Below, piece by piece: positions 6,085-24,623 of a stretch of DNA of 64,000 bases. The position numbers were made by a program, and so were the translations under genes. The notes beneath the pieces are model-generated. The model was not told the origin of the DNA, searched no databases, and saw only the letters and a program-made list of their open reading frames with translations. This DNA is from a virus (Duplodnaviria; Caudoviricetes): the IMG/VR virus record IMGVR_UViG_2558860226_000001, positions 1 to 64,000 of that record. The stretch is one strand, 5' to 3'. Each line of letters begins with the position of its first letter. The stretch's first letter is position 1.

Positions 6085-7263
6085 TTACACACCTCCCAGT
6101 GACGAGAACGCGGAATCAAAATAGTCATCGGTGAAGGTCTGGTATAACGTCAGGTCTTCCAGCGGCGGCACCGGCGTGTACTTGTAACGCACGCGCACCT
6201 GTCCCTGCCGCAGGCCGGTTGTGGGGTTGTCCTGAATATCGAACCAGCATTCCCCGCCGATCAGCCTGCCCGCCGTGACCAGCGCGCTCAGCTTGCCGTT
6301 GATGCCGTTCACCACGTCTTTCACGTTGGCCGGAGTCAGTGGCTCGTCAACGGCTTCAAACTGCGCTTCCGCGATACTGTCAGCGAGGATTTGCGCGGTG
6401 CGGGTGTACACCTCAAACAGGTAATCATGGATATCGGTGGTGCGGTTGCCCCAGAAGCGGAATCCGTTGCGCTTAATCAGCGTGGTGATCTCCTGGTTGT
6501 TAAGTTCATTGGCGTCGCTGTCTTCGGCCTGAAGCGACCAGAACACATCCCGCGAGATACCCAGCACGTTATTCACTGCCACGTTCGACAGCGACTTATG
6601 CCAGCCCTGATCGTTATCAATCGCTGCGCGCAGGCCGCAGGCATAGGCCGACGCCGGAAAGGTTTCATTGCTGCCGCTAAGCGGGTTATAAGCGATAAAA
6701 TCCGGCCAGATCAGCATCAGCTCACGGTAGGCAAACTGCGCACGGTAGGTGATGGCCTCCGCCATCGTGGTGCAGCCGTGACAACCGGCATAGACAAACG
6801 CCCGCAGATTCTGCGCAATCACACACAGCGCTGACGTCACTTCGGCGGTGTCATAGTCCGGTACCGCCAGAATCCGGGGCCGGTAATTAACTTTTGCTTC
6901 TGCCGTCAGCAAGGCATACATGCCGGTATAACTGCCGTCTGCCGCTGTCCCGCCGATAATCAGTTGGGACTGGGTTTTGTCGCCGCCTTCGGTTGCTGCT
7001 GCCACCCGCACCACGATCACTTTCGGGCTGGTCTGGTCAGAAATGGCTTTCAGCGTCTTGTAGAGTGAGCCGGTTTTACCCGCCTTGCCCAGCACGCTAT
7101 TCACCCGTGTGATGAGCACCGGCGTATTCAGGGGAAAGGTGTCTGCGTCCGCATCCTCCGCCACGGCCACCACGCCAATCACACTGGAATCAATGTCATT
7201 GATTGCGGTTACCAGGTCGGTATTTTCACGAACGCGCACACCGTGGAAACGTGTCTCGGACAT
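6085..7263 (-). CDS. Tail sheath protein FI
   Basis: FHGVRV..., GWHKSLSN, GFRFWGNRT, YTPVPPLEDL. Confidence 0.94.
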   Translation of the reverse strand: MSETRFHGVRVRENTDLVTAINDIDSSVIGVVAVAEDADADTFPLNTPVLITRVNSVLGKAGKTGSLYKTLKAISDQTSPKVIVVRVAAATEGGDKTQSQLIIGGTAADGSYTGMYALLTAEAKVNYRPRILAVPDYDTAEVTSALCVIAQNLRAFVYAGCHGCTTMAEAITYRAQFAYRELMLIWPDFIAYNPLSGSNETFPASAYACGLRAAIDNDQGWHKSLSNVAVNNVLGISRDVFWSLQAEDSDANELNNQEITTLIKRNGFRFWGNRTTDIHDYLFEVYTRTAQILADSIAEAQFEAVDEPLTPANVKDVVNGINGKLSALVTAGRLIGGECWFDIQDNPTTGLRQGQVRVRYKYTPVPPLEDLTLYQTFTDDYFDSAFSSLGGV

Positions 7264-9641: not shown

Positions 9642-9728
9642 TGGTGCCCAGAGCGGGACTTGAACCCGCACAGCGCGAACGCCGAGGGATTTTAAATCCC
9701 TTGTGTCTACCGATTTCACCATCTGGGC
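9642..9728 (-). tRNA. leuZ: tRNA-Leu(TAA); probable att site of the P2-like prophage
   Basis: 87 nt, GCCCAGATGGTGAAATCGG...anticodon TAA...CACCA. Confidence 0.96.
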
Positions 9729-9736
9729 TCAGATAT

Positions 9737-9810
9737 TGGAGGCGCGTCCCGGAGTCGAACCGAGGTGGACGGATTTGCAATCCGCTGCATGGCCACTCTG
9801 CCAACGCGCC
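9737..9810 (-). tRNA. cysT: tRNA-Cys(GCA)
   Basis: 74 nt, GGCGCGTTGGCAGAGTGG...TTGCAAA...CTCCA. Confidence 0.96.
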
Positions 9811-9835
9811 CTATATTGGGGCTACTAAATCGATT

Positions 9836-9911
<76 letters not shown>

Positions 9912-10052
9912 ATTTTACAGAACAGGTTGTTTATTAAGTATTTTCAATAAACTATGTTCCTGTCGATGCGGTGCATTCTACTTACCTGACGCGGTGAGTC
10001 AATAAAATTATCACCCCGCTTGGATCGTTTGCTGTTTTTTAAGGCGAGACGA

Positions 10053-10602
10053 TCAATGTTCAAGCAAATCACGCCAGGCTGCGCTCAGATATTGAAACAT
10101 CGACCAGAACGTCAATACAGCGGCCACATACAAAGCAGCCACGCCAGCAGCCTCCACCATGCGCTCCGGTCGCCACAACAAACCGACCAGCGCAACCATC
10201 TGCGCAGTAGTTTTGAATCTTACCAATCCAGGAAACCGCCACGCTGCTGCGCTTACCCAGCTCCGCCATCCATTCGCGCAAGGCAGAAATAATGATCTCA
10301 CGCGCAATCATCGTAGCGGCGGGCAAGGTAATCCACCATGAATGATAATGCTCAGATACCAGCACCAAAGCAACCGCGACCATGACTTTGTCAGCAACAG
10401 GATCCAAAAAAGCACCAAACCGGGTAGTTTGTCTCCATAAGCGGGCAAGAAAACCATCAAACCAGTCTGTCACGGCTGCAAAAACAAAAATGCTAGCACA
10501 GACCATCGGTGCCCAACTGAATGGCAGATAAAACGCCAGCACAAAGAATGGGATGAGAACAACACGAAACAGGGTAAGCCACGTTGGTATATTAAATCGC
10601 AT
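10053..10602 (-). CDS. pgsA: PgsA, CDP-diacylglycerol--glycerol-3-phosphate phosphatidyltransferase; apparent +1 frameshift near 10216
   Basis: [20 protein letters not shown] motif in one frame; KTTAQM...WRDLLEH C-terminus in another frame. Confidence 0.93.
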
Positions 10603-10659
10603 AGCGTCTGGGTAACTGTCTGGCCCGAAAGATAATAGGGCTATGTTGCTACATTGCCT

Positions 10660-12492
10660 CTAGTGTTTCAATGCATGAAAGATTTTTTCTGCCAGCGCAT
10701 GTGAAATTCCCGGTACGTTGGCAATGTCCTCCACACTTGCATTCATCAGCGGCTGTAACCCCCCCATGTACTTCAGCAAAATCTGACGTCGCTTAGGCCC
10801 TACTCCTTCGATAGTCTCCAGAGAACTGGTGCTTTTGACCTTGGCGCGCTGTTTACGGTGACCACTGATAGCATGATTATGTGAATCGTCGCGAATATGC
10901 TGAATCACATGTAATGCTGGTGAATCAGCGGGCAAGGCCACACCCTCGCCTGTCGCTTCAAAAAATAGCGTCTCAAGCCCAGCCTTACGATCACTACCTT
11001 TCGCAACACCCAACAGTAAAGGTCGGGATGTATCCCACGGTACCTGCAATGATGCAAAAACACCCTTGGCCTGCGCCAGTTGCCCTTTTCCGCCATCGAT
11101 TACAATTACATCAGGAATCTTATCTTCGTCAATTGACTTACCATAGCGACGTCTCAGCACTTGATTCATTGCTGCATAGTCGTCCCCTGGTGTGATACCG
11201 GTAATGTTGTAGCGACGATATTCCGAGCGTACTGGCCCATCTGCATTGAACACAACACAGGAGGCCACCGTCTGCTCTCCCATAGTATGGCTAATATCAA
11301 AACACTCCATACGCTTGATTTTTTCAATGCCAAGCACCGATGCTAACGCCGTCAGACGTTGCTGGATAGTCGACTGTTGTGACAACTTCGTCGTTAGTGC
11401 TGTATGGGCGTTGGTACGCGCCAGTTTAAGGTAGCGTGCGCGGTCACCCCGAGGACGGGTTTGAATCTGAATTTTACGGCCCGCCTGATCGGTTAGCGAC
11501 TCAGCCAGCAACTGATGCTCAGGCAAAGAAAAATCCAGCAAGATTTCAGACGGTAGGGTACGAAAAACACTGCCTTGCAAATAGAACTGCCCCACAAATG
11601 TCTGCACCACTTCCGCCAGCTCAGTCCCACCAGGAACTTTGGGAAAATAGCTGCGACTGCCCAGAACCTTTCCCTGACGAATAAAGAGCACATGCACACA
11701 TGCCATGCCAGCATCGAAGGCCACGCCGATTACGTCAAGATCATCACCATCGCCAGAGACAAATTGTTTTTCAGTGACACGGCGTACAGCCTGAATTTGA
11801 TCACGGATACGTGCGGCCTCTTCAAACCTTAATTTACTGCTCGCTGTTTCCATACGGTCAATCAATCGGGTTAGCACCTGCTGATCTTTGCCTGACAGAA
11901 AAAGACGCACATATTCAACCTGTTGTTGGTACTCTTCATCACTAACAAGGCCACTGACGCAAGGTCCAAGGCAGCGACCAATCTGATATTGCAGGCAAGG
12001 GCGAGAACGGTTGCGGTATACGCTATTTTCACACTGACGGATAGGGAATAGTTTTTGTAATAACATCAGCGTTTCACGAACAGCATTGCCATTAGGAAAC
12101 GGACCAAAATATTCGCCTTTGGCGTGTTTGGCACCACGGTGAACAGACAACCGGGGATGCTCATCCCCACTGAGGAAAATCATCGGGTATGACTTATCAT
12201 CACGTAACAACACGTTGTAACGTGGCTGATAGCGTTTGATATAGTTGTGCTCAAGTAATAGAGCCTCGGTTTCAGTATGCGTGATCGTCACATCGATCTG
12301 CCGGATACTTTTCACCAAAGCCTCTGTTTTACGGCTAGCAACATGAGCACGAAAATAACTTGAAAGGCGTTTCTTCAGATCTTTGGCTTTACCGACGTAG
12401 ATAACCGTGTCGCTAGCATCATACATACGATAAACCCCAGGCTGACTGGTTACAGTCTTCAGAAAAGCCTGGGCATCAAAACGTTCAGTCAC
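10660..12492 (-). CDS. uvrC: Excinuclease ABC subunit C
   Basis: GIY-YIG N-terminus ([18 protein letters not shown]), ECFDISH, DGGKGQL, C-terminal HhH. Confidence 0.98.
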
Positions 12493-13141
12493 TACTAATC
12501 AATGTCTCCGCATTAAAGAGTCCATGTCGAATCGCCAGATGCGTTAGTTCAACATCACCATTGATGTTTAGTTTATTAAACATTCGGTAACGATAACTAT
12601 TGACCGTTTTTGGGCTAAGGTTGAGTTGATCAGAGATCTCTGTCACTTTCTGCCCTTTAGTGATCATGATCATAATCTGCAATTCACGCTCAGAAAGACA
12701 CTCCAACGGTGTTTCTGTCTGTGGCTCCAACTGACTCAATGCCATTTGCTGGGCGATATCCGACGCAATATATCGCTTACCGGCATGTACAGAGCGAATG
12801 GCACAGATTACCTCTTCTGGCGTGGCTCCCTTGCTAAGGTAACCTGCCGCGCCTGCCTGCATTACTTTAGCAGGTAATGGGTTCTCTGTGTAAATAGTTA
12901 GCACTATAACTTTAATTTCAGGGGAAAATCGTACAATTTTGCGTGTTGCCTCCAGGCCGCCAATTCCTGGCATGTTCATATCCATCAACACAACGTCCAC
13001 ACTGTTATTACGGCACCATTTGACCGCATCTTCACCGCACTGAGCCTCACCAACAACCTTGAGGCCTTTAATATCGTCAAGAATGCGCCGTATCCCTGCT
13101 CGCACCAGTTCATGGTCATCAACAAGAAAAACGCTAATCAA
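12485..13141 (-). CDS. uvrY: Response regulator UvrY/GacA/ExpA
   Basis: REC + LuxR HTH; TTG start with GGAG SD; overlaps uvrC start as in the conserved uvrY-uvrC operon. Confidence 0.96.
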
Positions 13142-13781
13142 AGAACAATTCTCCAAAAAGAGTAACACTTGCAGACAATTCCATTGCAGGTGATACTACG
13201 TGGTTTCGAAAAAATGAACACACTTTTCAATTAGAAGTGTATTTTTATTCTACTGTATGGTATTATCATAAGAGCCTATAAATGATACCTACCGCGCATC
13301 ATCCAAAGAACTTACTCCCATCACAGTATTCATGTTTCAAACCTGGTTTTTTAGAGAAACAGACGTGTCGAACGTCTAAAAATAGAAAATTTAAATTTAA
13401 TCAATGAACTATAAAAGCTTGCACCTGCATCCAATCAGGCCAGCAACAACTATCATCTATTGTAACTGTCTTGTCGCTTTGCTGCACTGGCTATTTACTA
13501 CAAATAATACACCTCTTCCAAAATATCCATATAAAAATTGCAAGGTGTCTACTCAAACGCATTTACAATGCCAAACGCATATTGATCAAATATGGGCAAA
13601 ATGTGGCATAAACAGATAAAAACAAGGCGATTTTATGGCCTGATGGGGCTAATTTCTTCACCAGACGCATTGTAGTTCATGGTATAATAAGACCAATTTT
13701 TGTTATGTCACCAACTGTATCATGGTGCAGAACCAATCCCAGGGCCCATTGCATCGGCTTGCGTTTGTTAAAGGAGATACT

Positions 13782-20985: not shown

Positions 20986-21471
20986 TCAAGGCTGATTTAC
21001 GCCGCCACGTTGCTGCAATATATCGGAGATCGACATGTCAGATGGATGGCAAAGTTCACGTGAATCATAAGTCCGCGACCAGTAAGCAAGCCAATCTTCC
21101 AATTCTCTACAGGTGTACGTCTTGCAGGCCAGCCCCTCAGCCATAGTGACAATGTCATCACCCGGTGCCGTCAGCTCGTAGCCATTGATTAGCAAAAATA
21201 TATAACCACCCATCATAGCCGTACGCTTGTTGGCGTTCGCAAACGGGTGATTTTGTATCAGGCTTTCAATAAGAGCCGCGGCCAAGACAAACATGTCATC
21301 TGTTTGCTGATAATATCTCGTCAGGCTTGGTCTGGATTGCGATGAACTGAGATTGTTTGGATTGAGAACGCAAACAGGCTCGGATGGTGTTTGCGCCTCA
21401 ATCAAACTTTTATTGATAAAAATCAGATCATCTTCGGAAAGGTAATGAACTCCATCAATAAACTCGGCCAT
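20986..21471 (-). CDS. Doc (Fic-family) toxin
   Basis: QNHPFANANKRTA Doc-type motif. Confidence 0.88.
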   Translation of the reverse strand: MAEFIDGVHYLSEDDLIFINKSLIEAQTPSEPVCVLNPNNLSSSQSRPSLTRYYQQTDDMFVLAAALIESLIQNHPFANANKRTAMMGGYIFLLINGYELTAPGDDIVTMAEGLACKTYTCRELEDWLAYWSRTYDSRELCHPSDMSISDILQQRGGVNQP

Positions 21472-21480
21472 GCGTGTGCT

Positions 21481-21660
21481 TTACACCTTAGAGAGATCTT
21501 CCATCGCCTTTTCGTAACGAGCAAAACCAAAAGCAAAGGCGTTCTTTACCTGATCTGCGTGTGCGCAGTCGCTTCCCATTGCCGCACGTGGAGATGCCAC
21601 CACGCCTTTGTCACGCGGGGGGATGTACAACCGCTCGGACTTTCTCAGTGCGTGACTCAT
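21481..21660 (-). CDS. Small putative antitoxin for Doc
   Basis: 59 aa, 9 bp upstream of doc, C-terminal helix FARYEKAMEDLSKV; AGAGG SD. Confidence 0.6.
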   Translation of the reverse strand: MSHALRKSERLYIPPRDKGVVASPRAAMGSDCAHADQVKNAFAFGFARYEKAMEDLSKV

Positions 21661-22178
21661 AATATAAACCTCTGTAATTACTAACAATATTGTGTAATCC
21701 ATTAACATAAGACCACCAGTGCGCGCCATTCACTACAGCCCAATGGTTAGAATGACCTGTAATGCATCTAGTAATCTTAGGGCTAAGTTTATAGTAAACA
21801 CCGAGTCAAGCCATGGTTTACTTTCACAGGCAAACAAAAAAATCAATAGCGCATAATCAAATCCCCATTTGTACAAGGGATTTCATTAACCTGGCTCAAT
21901 CATAGTTAGCAATCGGTCTGACGCCACACAAATGAAGTGCGTAGACAAAAACTCGCGTTAGGTAAAGACTGATCGCCTGTACAGGGTTTATTTGTAATCA
22001 ACCATCAAAAGGTGCGGTTCTCGTTTGCGTTTTACAAAAAAAATATGATTCTTGCGTTGCGCGGTTAACCATTTTCGGTCAAGCTTTGATTTAACAAGTA
22101 AAGGTTTTGATTTGCCAAATCCAGTAGCTAATCTAGTACGCGCAAAACGAAAGGACTCCCGATCATTGTGGGGGACAT

Positions 22179-22811
22179 ATGCAAACAGCAGCTAAGAATA
22201 CAACTATGCCATACATGATCCCGGAAGCGGACTTCGACAGAAAGCTCAGCGTTATCAAAAACAACATCGAGCATACCAGCTCTTTTTTGCAAAAAGGCAT
22301 AGAGGATTTCTCGTTGCCGGGCTTTGTTGTGCCATTTGGCTATCGACTGGTTAAATCTCGTGATAACGAACACTACCGACTGATTACTGATTCGCAAGAT
22401 TCAGAAACCGTTTACGCCGTTAAACTGCTGTTTCGGCATGACATCATAAACGCTAAAAAAACATGCACGCAGATATTGGTATGGCGAACCATTCAGGCCC
22501 AGCATGACAGTGCCGTCCGAGGTCTTCCCCAAGTTTTCTTTGAGTTTTTTTTAGAAAGCTACTCGATTGTCGTATCTGATGAAGAGCAAACTCCTGATGG
22601 ACGCCGCTTTTGGGAACGAATGATTTCGTGGGCCATGTCTGCAACTGGATATCATGTATATGTATCAGATGGCACGCAAGAATCGCGTCCGTTGACATTT
22701 ATGACATCATGGGACGACTTCTATACTACGTGGTCTGAATTCTGCTGGGGTCATGACAAAGAGTGTCATCGCCACAGGCTGCTAGTGATCAGCAAAGACA
22801 AGCTGCACTAA
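22179..22811 (+). CDS. Hypothetical moron protein, possibly GNAT-like fold
   Basis: 210-aa ORF with SD and own terminator; VSDEEQTPDGRRFW motif. Confidence 0.7.
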   Translation: MQTAAKNTTMPYMIPEADFDRKLSVIKNNIEHTSSFLQKGIEDFSLPGFVVPFGYRLVKSRDNEHYRLITDSQDSETVYAVKLLFRHDIINAKKTCTQILVWRTIQAQHDSAVRGLPQVFFEFFLESYSIVVSDEEQTPDGRRFWERMISWAMSATGYHVYVSDGTQESRPLTFMTSWDDFYTTWSEFCWGHDKECHRHRLLVISKDKLH

Positions 22812-22820
22812 TCACCAAAC

Positions 22821-22842
22821 TAAACCCGGCTTGCCGGGTTTA
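22821..22842. terminator. Intrinsic terminator
   Basis: taaacccgg-N4-ccgggttta. Confidence 0.75.
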
Positions 22843-22865
22843 TTATTGTCATTCAAATAACCTTG

Positions 22866-22894
22866 TTGACGCCCAGATCACTATCAGCTACATT
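22866..22894 (+). promoter_or_regulatory. Sigma70 promoter of C4-like cassette 1
   Basis: TTGACG-N17-TACATT. Confidence 0.65.
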
Positions 22895-23008
22895 CTGTGT
22901 CACGAGGCGTAGAAACCTCTCCAAAAGCGGTCCTAACCAACCCCGATAGCGTTGGATTTTTTATGCCTGTCATTCAGTGGGCGCAGTGCGCGACCACACC
23001 CCGAATAA

Positions 23009-23093
23009 TGTCGGGAGGGCAACGAATACAACACCCAGCAATGGGGAATAAGTTCGCGGTATCTTTTGGGCCGTTTCTAACCTCCCGACACCA
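23009..23093 (+). ncRNA. C4-type antisense RNA 1
   Basis: 10-bp closing stem tgtcgggagg/cctcccgaca + CCA; inner AATACAACACCC..GGGGAATA; loops complementary to leader tagaaac/ccaaaag. Confidence 0.72.
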
Positions 23094-23108
23094 CACCATC
23101 TGTGGTAA

Positions 23109-23138
23109 TTGACAATCTAATTAATTTCAGAATATAGT
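23109..23138 (+). promoter_or_regulatory. Sigma70 promoter of C4-like cassette 2
   Basis: TTGACA-N18-TATAGT. Confidence 0.65.
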
Positions 23139-23222
23139 TCCGTCAGGTGCTCAAAACACCACAAACAGCGGATACCGCACCCGATAGACTTGCGGATTTT
23201 TTGTGCCTGAATTTTGGATATA

Positions 23223-23303
23223 TGGCCGGGCGTGCGGCTAATACAACACCCGAAAGGGGAATATGCCCGCCGACTGTTTGCGGTTTTGAGCGCCCGGCCA
23301 CCC
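23223..23303 (+). ncRNA. C4-type antisense RNA 2
   Basis: 10-bp closing stem tggccgggcg/cgcccggcca; same inner motif; loops complementary to leader gctcaaaac/caaacag. Confidence 0.72.
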
Positions 23304-23337
23304 TACGCAACGCCGGTTATTGCCCATCACATTAATC

Positions 23338-23574
23338 CTATTGTTTTGGCGTTTGCTGCTTCTCAATTAACAACTTTAACCCTTCTAGTGATCTAGCAAT
23401 CTCAGTAAGACTACCCGCAGGATTAGTGGTAAACGCGGCCTCAACCCACGCCTCTAAGGCGGCAACAATTTCAGCGTTTATGGATCTCTTATTCCTTTCT
23501 GCAAGAGCCGCCACCTTCTCTTTTAATTCCGGATGGATTCTGACGTTGAACTGTGGATTTCTAGGTGCTGACAT
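23338..23574 (-). CDS. Arc/Mnt-family ribbon-helix-helix repressor
   Basis: PQFNVRIHPELKEKV...NKRSINAEIV. Confidence 0.88.
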   Translation of the reverse strand: MSAPRNPQFNVRIHPELKEKVAALAERNKRSINAEIVAALEAWVEAAFTTNPAGSLTEIARSLEGLKLLIEKQQTPKQ

Positions 23575-23600
23575 AAAAATTACCTTGCTCAAATATTGAG

Positions 23601-23654
23601 TTGACATGATAGCCCACGGATACTAACATTTCAACATTGGTAGCCACTGGCTAC
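23601..23654 (+). promoter_or_regulatory. Antirepressor promoter with palindromic operator
   Basis: TTGACA-N17-TAACAT; GTAGCCA-C-TGGCTAC palindrome at 23640-23654. Confidence 0.6.
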
Positions 23655-23726
23655 TAACACGACGAAGCCCCAACTACTTGCGATAGCTGGGGCCTCTAAT
23701 TTGCCAGTAACCTGTGAGAAACCGAC

Positions 23727-24623
23727 ATGAAGAGTATGGCAAAAGTAAATGCTGATATCACCATTTTTAAGTTTGACGATAGAGATATTCGCGTTGTGAT
23801 GAAAAAAGGTGATCCTTGGTTTGTTGCCGCGGATTTATGTGACGCCTTGAATCTGACTAACTCCCGCGTTTCGCTTATGGCTCTGGATGATGATGAAAAG
23901 GATGTAAGTTTAATTTACACCCGTGGAGGTCGGCAGATAATGTCTGTTGTTAGTGAGTCTGGCATGTACACACTGATTCTTCGCTGTCGTGATGCTGTTA
24001 AACCCGGAACCGTTCCGTATCGCGTTAGAAAATGGGTCACTGCTGATGTTTTACCATCAATCCGTGAAACTGGGAAATACACTAAAAATTACGAAGATAT
24101 CGAAAAGACTACTGTTGATGACCGCACCCCGCTGCGCAGCTTAGTAAACCGGATTATGGGTAAGTACGGCATCCCATATCAGCCCATCTACAAAATGATC
24201 CACCGAGAATTTGGCGTTAACCATATCGATGAGCTTTCGCCAAAACAGGCAGCAGAAGCGATGGACTATTTGGCCGCAAAGGTCATAGAGGGTGAATTCC
24301 TCGGCAAGCAATCTCTACCAGCAACACCTCCATCACCAGCGCTTACCGTGCAGGAAATGAATCGTCTGGTGTGGCTATGGGATTACGCCAACCGCTCACA
24401 GGCCATTTTCAGGGAGCTAATGCCAGTCATGCAGCAATTGCAATCCTCGTATCATGGGGTGTGCTGCGATTACGGATATGAGTTCTCAGCAATCCTGTCA
24501 CTATCGCGTGACGCTGTGCTGAAGCTGACCAGTGGCGTAGATGTTCAGGCGCCCAGCGACTCAATAAACATATCAGCATGGATCAGGCTAAAGAATAACG
24601 AGCTACCGGCAAGACTGCGTTAA
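23727..24623 (+). CDS. Bro-N antirepressor with P22 Ant-like C-terminus
   Basis: PWFVAADLCDAL..VSESGMYTLILRCR..KWVT..VLPSIRETGKY; LVWLWDYANRSQ. Confidence 0.88.
   Translation: MKSMAKVNADITIFKFDDRDIRVVMKKGDPWFVAADLCDALNLTNSRVSLMALDDDEKDVSLIYTRGGRQIMSVVSESGMYTLILRCRDAVKPGTVPYRVRKWVTADVLPSIRETGKYTKNYEDIEKTTVDDRTPLRSLVNRIMGKYGIPYQPIYKMIHREFGVNHIDELSPKQAAEAMDYLAAKVIEGEFLGKQSLPATPPSPALTVQEMNRLVWLWDYANRSQAIFRELMPVMQQLQSSYHGVCCDYGYEFSAILSLSRDAVLKLTSGVDVQAPSDSINISAWIRLKNNELPARLR

Follow-up and report, generated by a model that had tools for sequence, protein, structure and literature searches.

Two tandem c4-like antisense RNA genes without a cis target in a Dickeya prophage

The window analyzed here is a stretch of 64,000 nucleotides (positions 1 to 64,000) of the IMG/VR virus record IMGVR_UViG_2558860226_000001, which is assigned to the Caudoviricetes. 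At positions 22866-23307 of its plus strand it contains an array of two head-to-tail units, each of them a gene for a small c4-like antisense RNA preceded by a leader with short boxes that are complementary to this RNA. Neither RNA has a target site in the prophage, and an action in trans is therefore proposed. Both units could be trans-acting immunity RNAs without a target of their own, a tentative reading to which we attach slightly less than an even chance.

Antirepressors are a main route by which one prophage induces another, and in the phages P1 and P7 it is the c4-type RNAs that determine the pattern of immunity between phages. Should target-less RNAs of the c4-like kind act in trans, the mere acquisition of small RNA cassettes could broaden the immunity of a prophage, and an RNA layer would be added to the competition between prophages. 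This would also provide a concrete function for sRNA-Xcc1, the RNA family in question, which is widespread on mobile elements and whose published roles are vague. As both the recognition sequences and natural matching targets have been identified, the idea is directly testable with reporters. If the units are only leftovers of former switches, the locus still records how such switches pass between phages.

Anatomy, fold and family of the two RNAs

Both units are built alike (Table 1). A sigma-70-like promoter is followed by a leader carrying the boxes a1 and b1, by a hairpin with a U run and, approximately 50 bases behind this hairpin, by a cloverleaf RNA of about 85 nt. A preliminary description of the locus, made from the DNA letters, had proposed this c4-type architecture for both units, and it is present at the positions given there. 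The closing stem of 10 bp, which had been ascribed to both cloverleaves, was found in unit 2, whereas the stem of unit 1 has 9 bp.

The complementarity between each RNA and its own leader is exact and comprises 7+7 nt in unit 1 and 9+7 nt in unit 2, with 0.00 matches expected from 100 shuffles of the window. The earlier claim that the loops fit their own leaders, and that they do so with different specificities, is borne out by these numbers. The stretches of the RNA that face the leader boxes are the variable hairpin loop (b') and the single-stranded stretch ahead of the closing stem (a'). The acceptor-like stem of 9-10 bp followed by ACCA or ACCC is, as far as sequence features go, consistent with a release of the RNA by RNase P.

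The two leader hairpins have loops of 9-11 nt and share a conserved CCCGATAG loop with a U run (GGATTTTTT). Hairpin and U run are conserved, that of unit 1 being kept in relatives, and a simple terminator scan made no call on them. By analogy, the leader hairpin of unit 1 looks like an attenuator or terminator of the IsrK type (PMC4825925).

In their minimum free energy structures both RNAs fold into a cloverleaf, which consists of the closing stem, a stem with the conserved AAUACAA..CCC/GGG..GAAU core and the variable hairpin. RNAalifold, when applied to a MAFFT alignment, missed the closing stem; the structure was then supplied by hand (20 pairs) and tested on an alignment of 61 relatives, a diverse set that came from viral contigs, from named phages and from the window itself. 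With this cloverleaf 86.8% of the cells are paired, and 215 cells with a double change were counted compared to 70 +/- 7 in shuffles. If all partners were slid by one to three columns, only 32-55% remained paired. A covariance model built from the same alignment (R1) scores 82.4 bits for the RNA of unit 1 and 73.7 bits for that of unit 2, and no other match to it was found in the window.

The preliminary description had pointed to the Rfam families C4 and c4-2, and this assignment did not hold. Both RNAs belong to sRNA-Xcc1 (RF02221), with 64.5 bits (E 2.3e-9) for unit 1 and 85 bits (E 3.2e-14) for unit 2, above the curated gathering score of 53 bits and over the full model length (1-87). No match to C4 (RF01695), isrK (RF01394) or c4-a1b1 was obtained between 22700 and 23700 at E <= 10, while the same Rfam search detects isrK and C4 adjoining each other in other phages.

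Several known systems can be compared to this arrangement. In the summaries given by later work, immI of P1 and P7 is described as a locus in which a c4 antisense RNA controls icd-ant through the box pairs a1/b1 and a2/b2 (Citron and Schuster 1990, cited in PMC12197685 and 10.1101/2020.03.17.996009). The units of the window share with it the promoter, the upstream boxes and a small tRNA-like RNA with two exposed stretches complementary to these boxes, and the specificity of their boxes and loops corresponds to the allele-specific recognition that defines the immunity type in P1 and P7. They differ from immI in that the RNAs match sRNA-Xcc1 instead of C4, that no downstream a2/b2, icd or ant is found at a ribosome binding site, and that two tandem units of different specificity are present.

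In the region isrK - orf45 (STnc1160) - anrP of Gifsy-1 from Salmonella, a leader RNA ends at its own terminator, while read-through yields an inactive mRNA and leads into a processed structured RNA; the locus controls an antirepressor, and IsrK, as a short leader RNA, is able to act in trans as an activator (Hershko-Shalev et al. 2016, PMC4825925). The window units are comparable in that a promoter-proximal leader with target-mimic boxes has a hairpin and a U run at which transcripts might end, and in that read-through would lead into a structured RNA. Unlike in Gifsy-1, the leaders have no Rfam isrK match, and no equivalent of orf45 or anrP lies behind either unit.

The family sRNA-Xcc1 itself was described in Xanthomonas as the RNA of an integron cassette upstream of symE, and as a small RNA of integrons and plasmids (PMC2996969; 10.1101/2025.06.18.660453). 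Xylella fastidiosa Temecula1 has five clustered homologues (sXF1-5), which are approximately 381-386 bases apart (PMC12189769). These three papers treat it as a virulence-linked or vesicle-carried small RNA and describe no leader boxes and no link to antirepressors. In APSE phages sRNA-Xcc1 was reported upstream of an ORF6N gene. The window RNAs resemble the published ones in being of the same family by covariance model, in lying on a mobile element and in occurring as several clustered copies. The principles of c4 and IsrK are already published; new is the array without any cis target, together with the evidence for a conserved target-less upstream unit. In our literature search no paper was found in which tandem units without targets are presented as a repertoire for immunity.

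Missing target sites and related arrays

In related units the a1b1 leader is usually followed by the RNA, and the RNA by a2b2, which overlaps the Shine-Dalgarno sequence of the gene behind it. In the Stx2a phages L001 and L002 and the Escherichia coli prophage remnant L003 the second box pair comes directly after the unit and overlaps the Shine-Dalgarno sequence of a gene that is annotated as an antirepressor. A viral sample of approximately 100 contigs was collected by the conserved RNA core pattern, and most of them show the three-fold match of leader boxes, RNA loops and boxes at the ribosome binding site, with dozens of different box sequences. Loops and boxes change together across dozens of homologues, which is the co-variation that had been expected. 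Behind the units, genes of three families are found, namely ORF6N, AntA and Rha. Use was also made of a viral scan with an RNA-specific pattern and of leader-based scans of viral and genome contigs, all of them complete. Scans with bare box patterns in viral contigs, or with the RNA-specific pattern in genome contigs, gave chance matches and were not used. A first classing by regular expressions, in which many units appeared target-less, was overturned by inspection by eye; nearly all of these units turned out to possess a b2 box together with a Shine-Dalgarno sequence and a start codon.

For the window units such a site was not found. An exact search of the entire record (100,779 bases; 100.8 kb) for a2/b2-type copies of either box pattern returned the leader and RNA copies only. 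This is in agreement with the earlier statement that neither unit is followed by a second target site, and the search includes the part of the prophage outside the window, where targets of both RNAs might have been located. If up to two mismatches were allowed over the whole record, 9 matches were counted for unit 1 compared to 17 in the control, and 7 compared to 1 for unit 2; most of these counts do not rise above the control, and none of the matches resembles an a2/b2 site. Unit 1 has no gene of its own and continues straight into promoter 2, and unit 2 runs into a convergent arc gene, both as described before. That no icd or ant reading frame follows the units is correct for their direct vicinity; at a distance of 420 bases downstream, however, the same strand does carry an ant gene, with a P22-like Mnt and sar-like control of its own.

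The comparison with related cassettes that had been suggested revealed collinear two-unit arrays. In a search of 121 genomes from the family of the host, paired RF02221 matches with a distance of 200-285 bases were found in G019 and G040, and the window array is collinear with both, with 78% identity to G040 over 405 bases. No target of the first unit lies within 10-18 kb in G040 and G019. Their second unit is complete with all three box sets, and the gene behind it is of the AntA type in G040 and of the Rha type in G019. The promoter of unit 1 has a counterpart at the equivalent position in both genomes. The -35 hexamer of promoter 2 starts at the position that is occupied by the a2 box of unit 1 in relatives, and its TTGAC is kept in G040 and G019.

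Within these three mosaic sequences (window, G040, G019) the identity amounts to 80-90% for the first-unit RNA and 73-87% for the first-unit leader, to 83-88% and 80-87% for the RNA and the leader of the second unit, and to 42-51% for the promoter spacers and the region between the units. The unit without a target is thus no less conserved than the gene-linked unit. In the window and in G019 the boxes of its leader match its loops, and the box sequences differ between the two. An upstream unit that lacks a target was also found in the arrays of L338, L349, L365, L339, L350, L709 and L774 (identical with G019), and a weak pair in L321. The target-less RNAs reach model scores of 83.8-90.9 bits, as high as gene-linked units. 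Unit 1 is a member of a recurrent class, namely of target-less units upstream of a gene-linked unit.

The window array is collinear with or homologous to the enterobacterial prophage arrays G040, G019, L338, L349 and L365, whose first unit is likewise target-less. It is distinguished from them by its last unit, which in those arrays still guards an antirepressor. The notion of an array of captured RNAs, put forward in the preliminary description, stands with regard to the different specificities and the absence of a cis target. The units are not equivalent captures, however: the pair is one inherited array, whose first unit lacks a target by design and whose second unit as a rule guards an antirepressor, and only unit 2 is orphaned here.

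When viral and genome contigs were scanned completely for the second type of leader, 33 non-duplicate units with an RF02221-type RNA were obtained. In all of them except unit 2 (32 out of 33) a b2 box is present along with a Shine-Dalgarno sequence and a start codon, doubtful units having been checked by eye. The homology to relatives stops just past the 3' end of each RNA, and that of unit 2 to G040 and G019 ends immediately past the RNA. It seems most likely that in this phage the arrival of the mnt/sar-like/ant module cost unit 2 its gene.

The main alternative concerns the array as a whole. Both units could be recombination leftovers of antirepressor cassettes that were swapped or deleted in an immunity region prone to recombination, perhaps still transcribed, with no selected function and destined to decay, which we regard as a real if rather doubtful possibility. 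The region is highly mosaic: only the mnt-like gene and the spacer after it are common to the mnt relatives (L555-L561), and no close relative of the locus or of the phage was found in plasmid and phage collections. Unit 1 shares 99% identity with a unit linked to a gene, so that the event would be recent, and unit 2 is the sole gene-less one among the 33 units of its type. Decay and chimeras are frequent in the family. Intermediate and decayed forms are represented by an ant pseudogene between two units in Stx2a_F451, a truncated leader in L338, the mismatched leader of G040, the chimeric leader and RNA of L733 and the truncated RNAs of L343 and L372. Against leftovers speaks that a target-less first unit occupies the same place in three diverged arrays, with RNA and leader conserved and the spacers not. 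Target-less units score as high as linked ones, and in the window the two units have kept their promoters and stop exactly where the intact RNAs have their 3' ends.

A second alternative arises from the module behind the array. It is similar to immI of P22 (mnt, Pant, sar, ant) in that a Mnt-like repressor gene is divergent from ant and a weak sar-like element is present. It differs from P22 immI in having no arc between the promoter and ant and a sar match below threshold, and P22 immI itself is without c4-like RNAs. In L557, L558 and L561 a sar match above threshold occurs at the equivalent place by the mnt-like gene. As ant has divergent promoters, a sar-like element and no matching boxes, it appears to be controlled in the manner of P22 immI and not by the cloverleaf RNAs.

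Nevertheless the array could act in cis, if read-through transcription ran antisense across the mnt-like gene and then entered ant in the sense direction. The level of Mnt would be lowered, or its control of ant circumvented, with the hairpins and RNAs setting the amount of read-through. No plus-strand terminator-like site was found by the terminator scan between 22843 and 23800, the stop codon of the convergent mnt-like gene lies 31 bases after the RNA of unit 2, and ant is on the same strand as the array. A stable hairpin at approximately 23667-23697, the sar-like terminator, would however stand in the path of the transcript. Furthermore, the closest mnt relatives have no such units nearby, and the same units in G040, G019 and other arrays face ordinary antirepressor genes without a mnt gene. 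The juxtaposition with mnt is therefore specific to this phage and probably accidental, and we consider an action in cis improbable.

Matching targets were sought in other phages, as had been suggested, and were found for both units. The recognition stretches of unit 1 (CTTTTGG, GCC, GTTTCTA) are identical in L003, L527 and L552, each of which continues with TAGAAA..CCAAAAGAGG..ATG. L527 is 99.1% identical to the window over 22865-23092, from the promoter to the 3' end of the RNA, and diverges exactly at its a2 box, which corresponds to the -35 hexamer of promoter 2 in the window; the gene behind this unit contains an ORF6N domain. The stretches of unit 2 (CTGTTTG, CG, GTTTTGAGC) recur in L455 (Chromobacterium fluminis), L553 (an environmental viral contig) and L686 (a Buttiauxella metagenome-assembled genome, with an RNA of C4-type core), each with CAAACAGGAG..ATG downstream. 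In a pattern search of 401 enterobacterial genomes the specificity of unit 1 occurred only in the target-less unit of G040. The matching of targets rests on exact complementarity rather than on duplex energy. For unit 2 the energies separate clearly, with -20 to -30 kcal/mol for matching compared to -12.5 +/- 2.9 kcal/mol for non-matching targets. A whole-genome scan for targets by duplex energy was dropped, being swamped by GC-rich chance duplexes.

The RNAs or their leaders might also act elsewhere, either on host mRNAs, an action proposed for sRNA-Xcc1 homologues of Xanthomonas and Xylella, or, in the case of the leaders, as decoys that soak up the c4-like RNAs of other prophages and so lead to induction. 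For the former one can refer to the description of sRNA-Xcc1 as a trans-acting small RNA in integron cassettes and to the five clustered Xylella homologues with predicted host targets (PMC12189769), and for the latter to the short IsrK leader RNA, which activates antirepressor translation in trans in Gifsy-1 (PMC4825925). The loops of the family, however, co-vary with boxes at the adjacent gene and not with a host gene, and no near-perfect site was found elsewhere in the record. We regard both variants as very improbable.

A possible function as trans-acting immunity RNAs

The reading as trans-acting immunity RNAs is favored because target-less first units recur and are conserved, and because both RNA genes have been retained precisely and with their promoters. 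The following course of events could be envisaged. Each unit would be transcribed from its own promoter. Some transcripts would stop at the leader hairpin, leading to a short leader RNA that carries the a1/b1 copy of the target boxes, while the remaining ones would read on into the tRNA-like cloverleaf, which RNase P might excise by analogy with P1 c4 and P4 CI. The free cloverleaf would expose two recognition stretches, b' in a loop and a' as a single strand. In related phages a' and b' are predicted to pair with a2 and b2, which overlap the Shine-Dalgarno sequence of an ORF6N-, AntA-, Rha- or BRO-type antirepressor gene, and to keep this gene silent. In the prophage described here the RNAs might instead silence antirepressors of co-resident or incoming phages with matching boxes. 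Such silencing could protect the prophage or the lysogen from induction by other immunity types, just as the specificity of c4 sets the heteroimmunity of P1 and P7.

Several observations weigh against this function and must be kept in mind. With respect to the units themselves, the conservation of the target-less unit was derived from three mosaic sequences only, and the b1 box of this unit in G040 no longer matches its RNA, so that some decay does occur. The lone gene-less state of unit 2 looks like a one-off deletion or replacement and not like a selected state, and the intactness of unit 1 may only reflect a recent rearrangement, given its near-identity to the gene-linked unit of L527. With respect to the targets, no matching one was found in a Dickeya or Pectobacterium genome, the rest of the host genome being unavailable to the search, and the representative genome of Dickeya oryzae has no RF02221 match. 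The known targets of unit 2 lie in Chromobacterium, in the metagenome-assembled genome of Buttiauxella and in an environmental contig, and for unit 1 the duplex energies of matching and non-matching targets were separated weakly.

A more general proposal would be that temperate phages keep heritable repertoires of target-less c4-like RNA genes, the recognition sequences of which are copied from the antirepressor switches of other lineages. This would amount to an RNA cross-immunity array that prevents rival or incoming phages from making antirepressors by which the resident prophage would be induced, and that is renewed by the exchange of whole cassettes at the 3' end of the RNA. We state this generalization with reserve and consider it rather unlikely.

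Surroundings of the array and variants of the units

The record represents a prophage together with host flank and not a free phage genome, the first 13 kb of the window being host DNA. The UvrC protein of the record is 95% identical to that of Dickeya oryzae, and the host is therefore regarded as a Dickeya. A P1-like phage-plasmid, as suggested by the size of the record and the phd/doc genes, was considered and rejected; host genes and a lambdoid-type prophage are present. The array is situated in an accessory region of the prophage, with the phd/doc pair and a phrog_1349 gene upstream and uncharacterised genes downstream.

Table 1. Features of the array and of its surroundings in the window
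Feature	Positions	Strand	Remarks
Host chromosome part	9642-13168		tRNA genes Leu(TAA), Cys(GCA), Gly(GCC) (glyW-cysT-leuZ), then pgsA, uvrC, uvrY
Doc-like toxin gene (Fic/DOC domain, phrog_577) and small upstream partner gene (phrog_2208)	20986-21729	minus	Near the left side of the array
phrog_1349 gene	22179-22811		Upstream of the array
Intrinsic terminator of the phrog_1349 gene	22821-22842	plus	9-bp stem and T run; left edge of the array
Promoter, unit 1	22866-22894	plus	TTGACG-17-TACATT, sigma-70-like, 9/12
Leader boxes, unit 1	22910-22927	plus	a1 = TAGAAAC, b1 = CCAAAAG; exact complement of 23063-23079
Leader hairpin, unit 1	22937-22962	plus	CCAAC / CCCGATAGC loop / GTTGG, then U run
Cloverleaf RNA, unit 1	23010-23097	plus	b' = CTTTTGG (23063-23069); a' = GTTTCTA (23073-23079); 3' tail ACCA
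Promoter, unit 2	23109-23138	plus	TTGACA-18-TATAGT, sigma-70-like, 11/12
Leader boxes, unit 2	23149-23168	plus	a1 = GCTCAAAAC, b1 = CAAACAG; complement at 23274-23291
Leader hairpin, unit 2	23175-23202	plus	CCGCA / CCCGATAGACT loop / TGCGG, then U run
Cloverleaf RNA, unit 2	23224-23307	plus	b' = CTGTTTG (23274-23280); a' = GTTTTGAGC (23283-23291)
Arc/Mnt-like ribbon-helix-helix repressor gene	23338-23607	minus	Pfam Arc 6.3e-10; context, not an RNA target
Divergent promoter-like sites, overlapping	23601-23634		For the mnt-like gene and ant
Weak sar-like antisense RNA over the ant start	23660-23728	minus	RF00262, 21 bits, E 0.15; gathering score 43 bits
Antirepressor gene ant (Bro-N + P22_AR_C)	23727-24623	plus	No a2/b2 boxes

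Homologues of the phrog_1349 gene (68% identity; L021-L045) occur in phages of approximately 40 kb, where they lie about 1 kb downstream of a pair of Rfam isrK and C4 matches. The gene therefore travels with c4-type antirepressor modules.

Variants of the units themselves were also observed. In a chimeric unit of L733 (Entomohabitans teleogrylli, 6505-6700) the leader has CAAACAG while the RNA and the target have TCGAAAG, and in the first unit of G040 (L659, 1180-1360) the leader box b1 reads CCATTAG compared to an RNA loop of CTTTTGG. Leaders and RNAs therefore recombine independently. In L686, L684 and L702 (Buttiauxella, Raoultella and Scandinavium) the leader type GGTGCTCAAAACACC is joined to a C4-type core in place of the sRNA-Xcc1 core. 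As one leader type is found with either core, the two Rfam families apparently represent modules of a single switch and can be exchanged for each other.

A subfamily of the RNA core with high GC content (L280, L283, L292, L297, L299, L344, L358, L374) has no visible leader boxes. Here a promoter-like TTGAC element is found downstream of the RNA, and the loop has a CCGCA(C/T) match near the start of the next gene. Judged from this order, the RNA seems to be encoded outside the mRNA that it would target. Finally, G024 and G040, genomes of 3-4 Mb from the host's family, have eight RF02221 matches each, far above the other genomes sampled.

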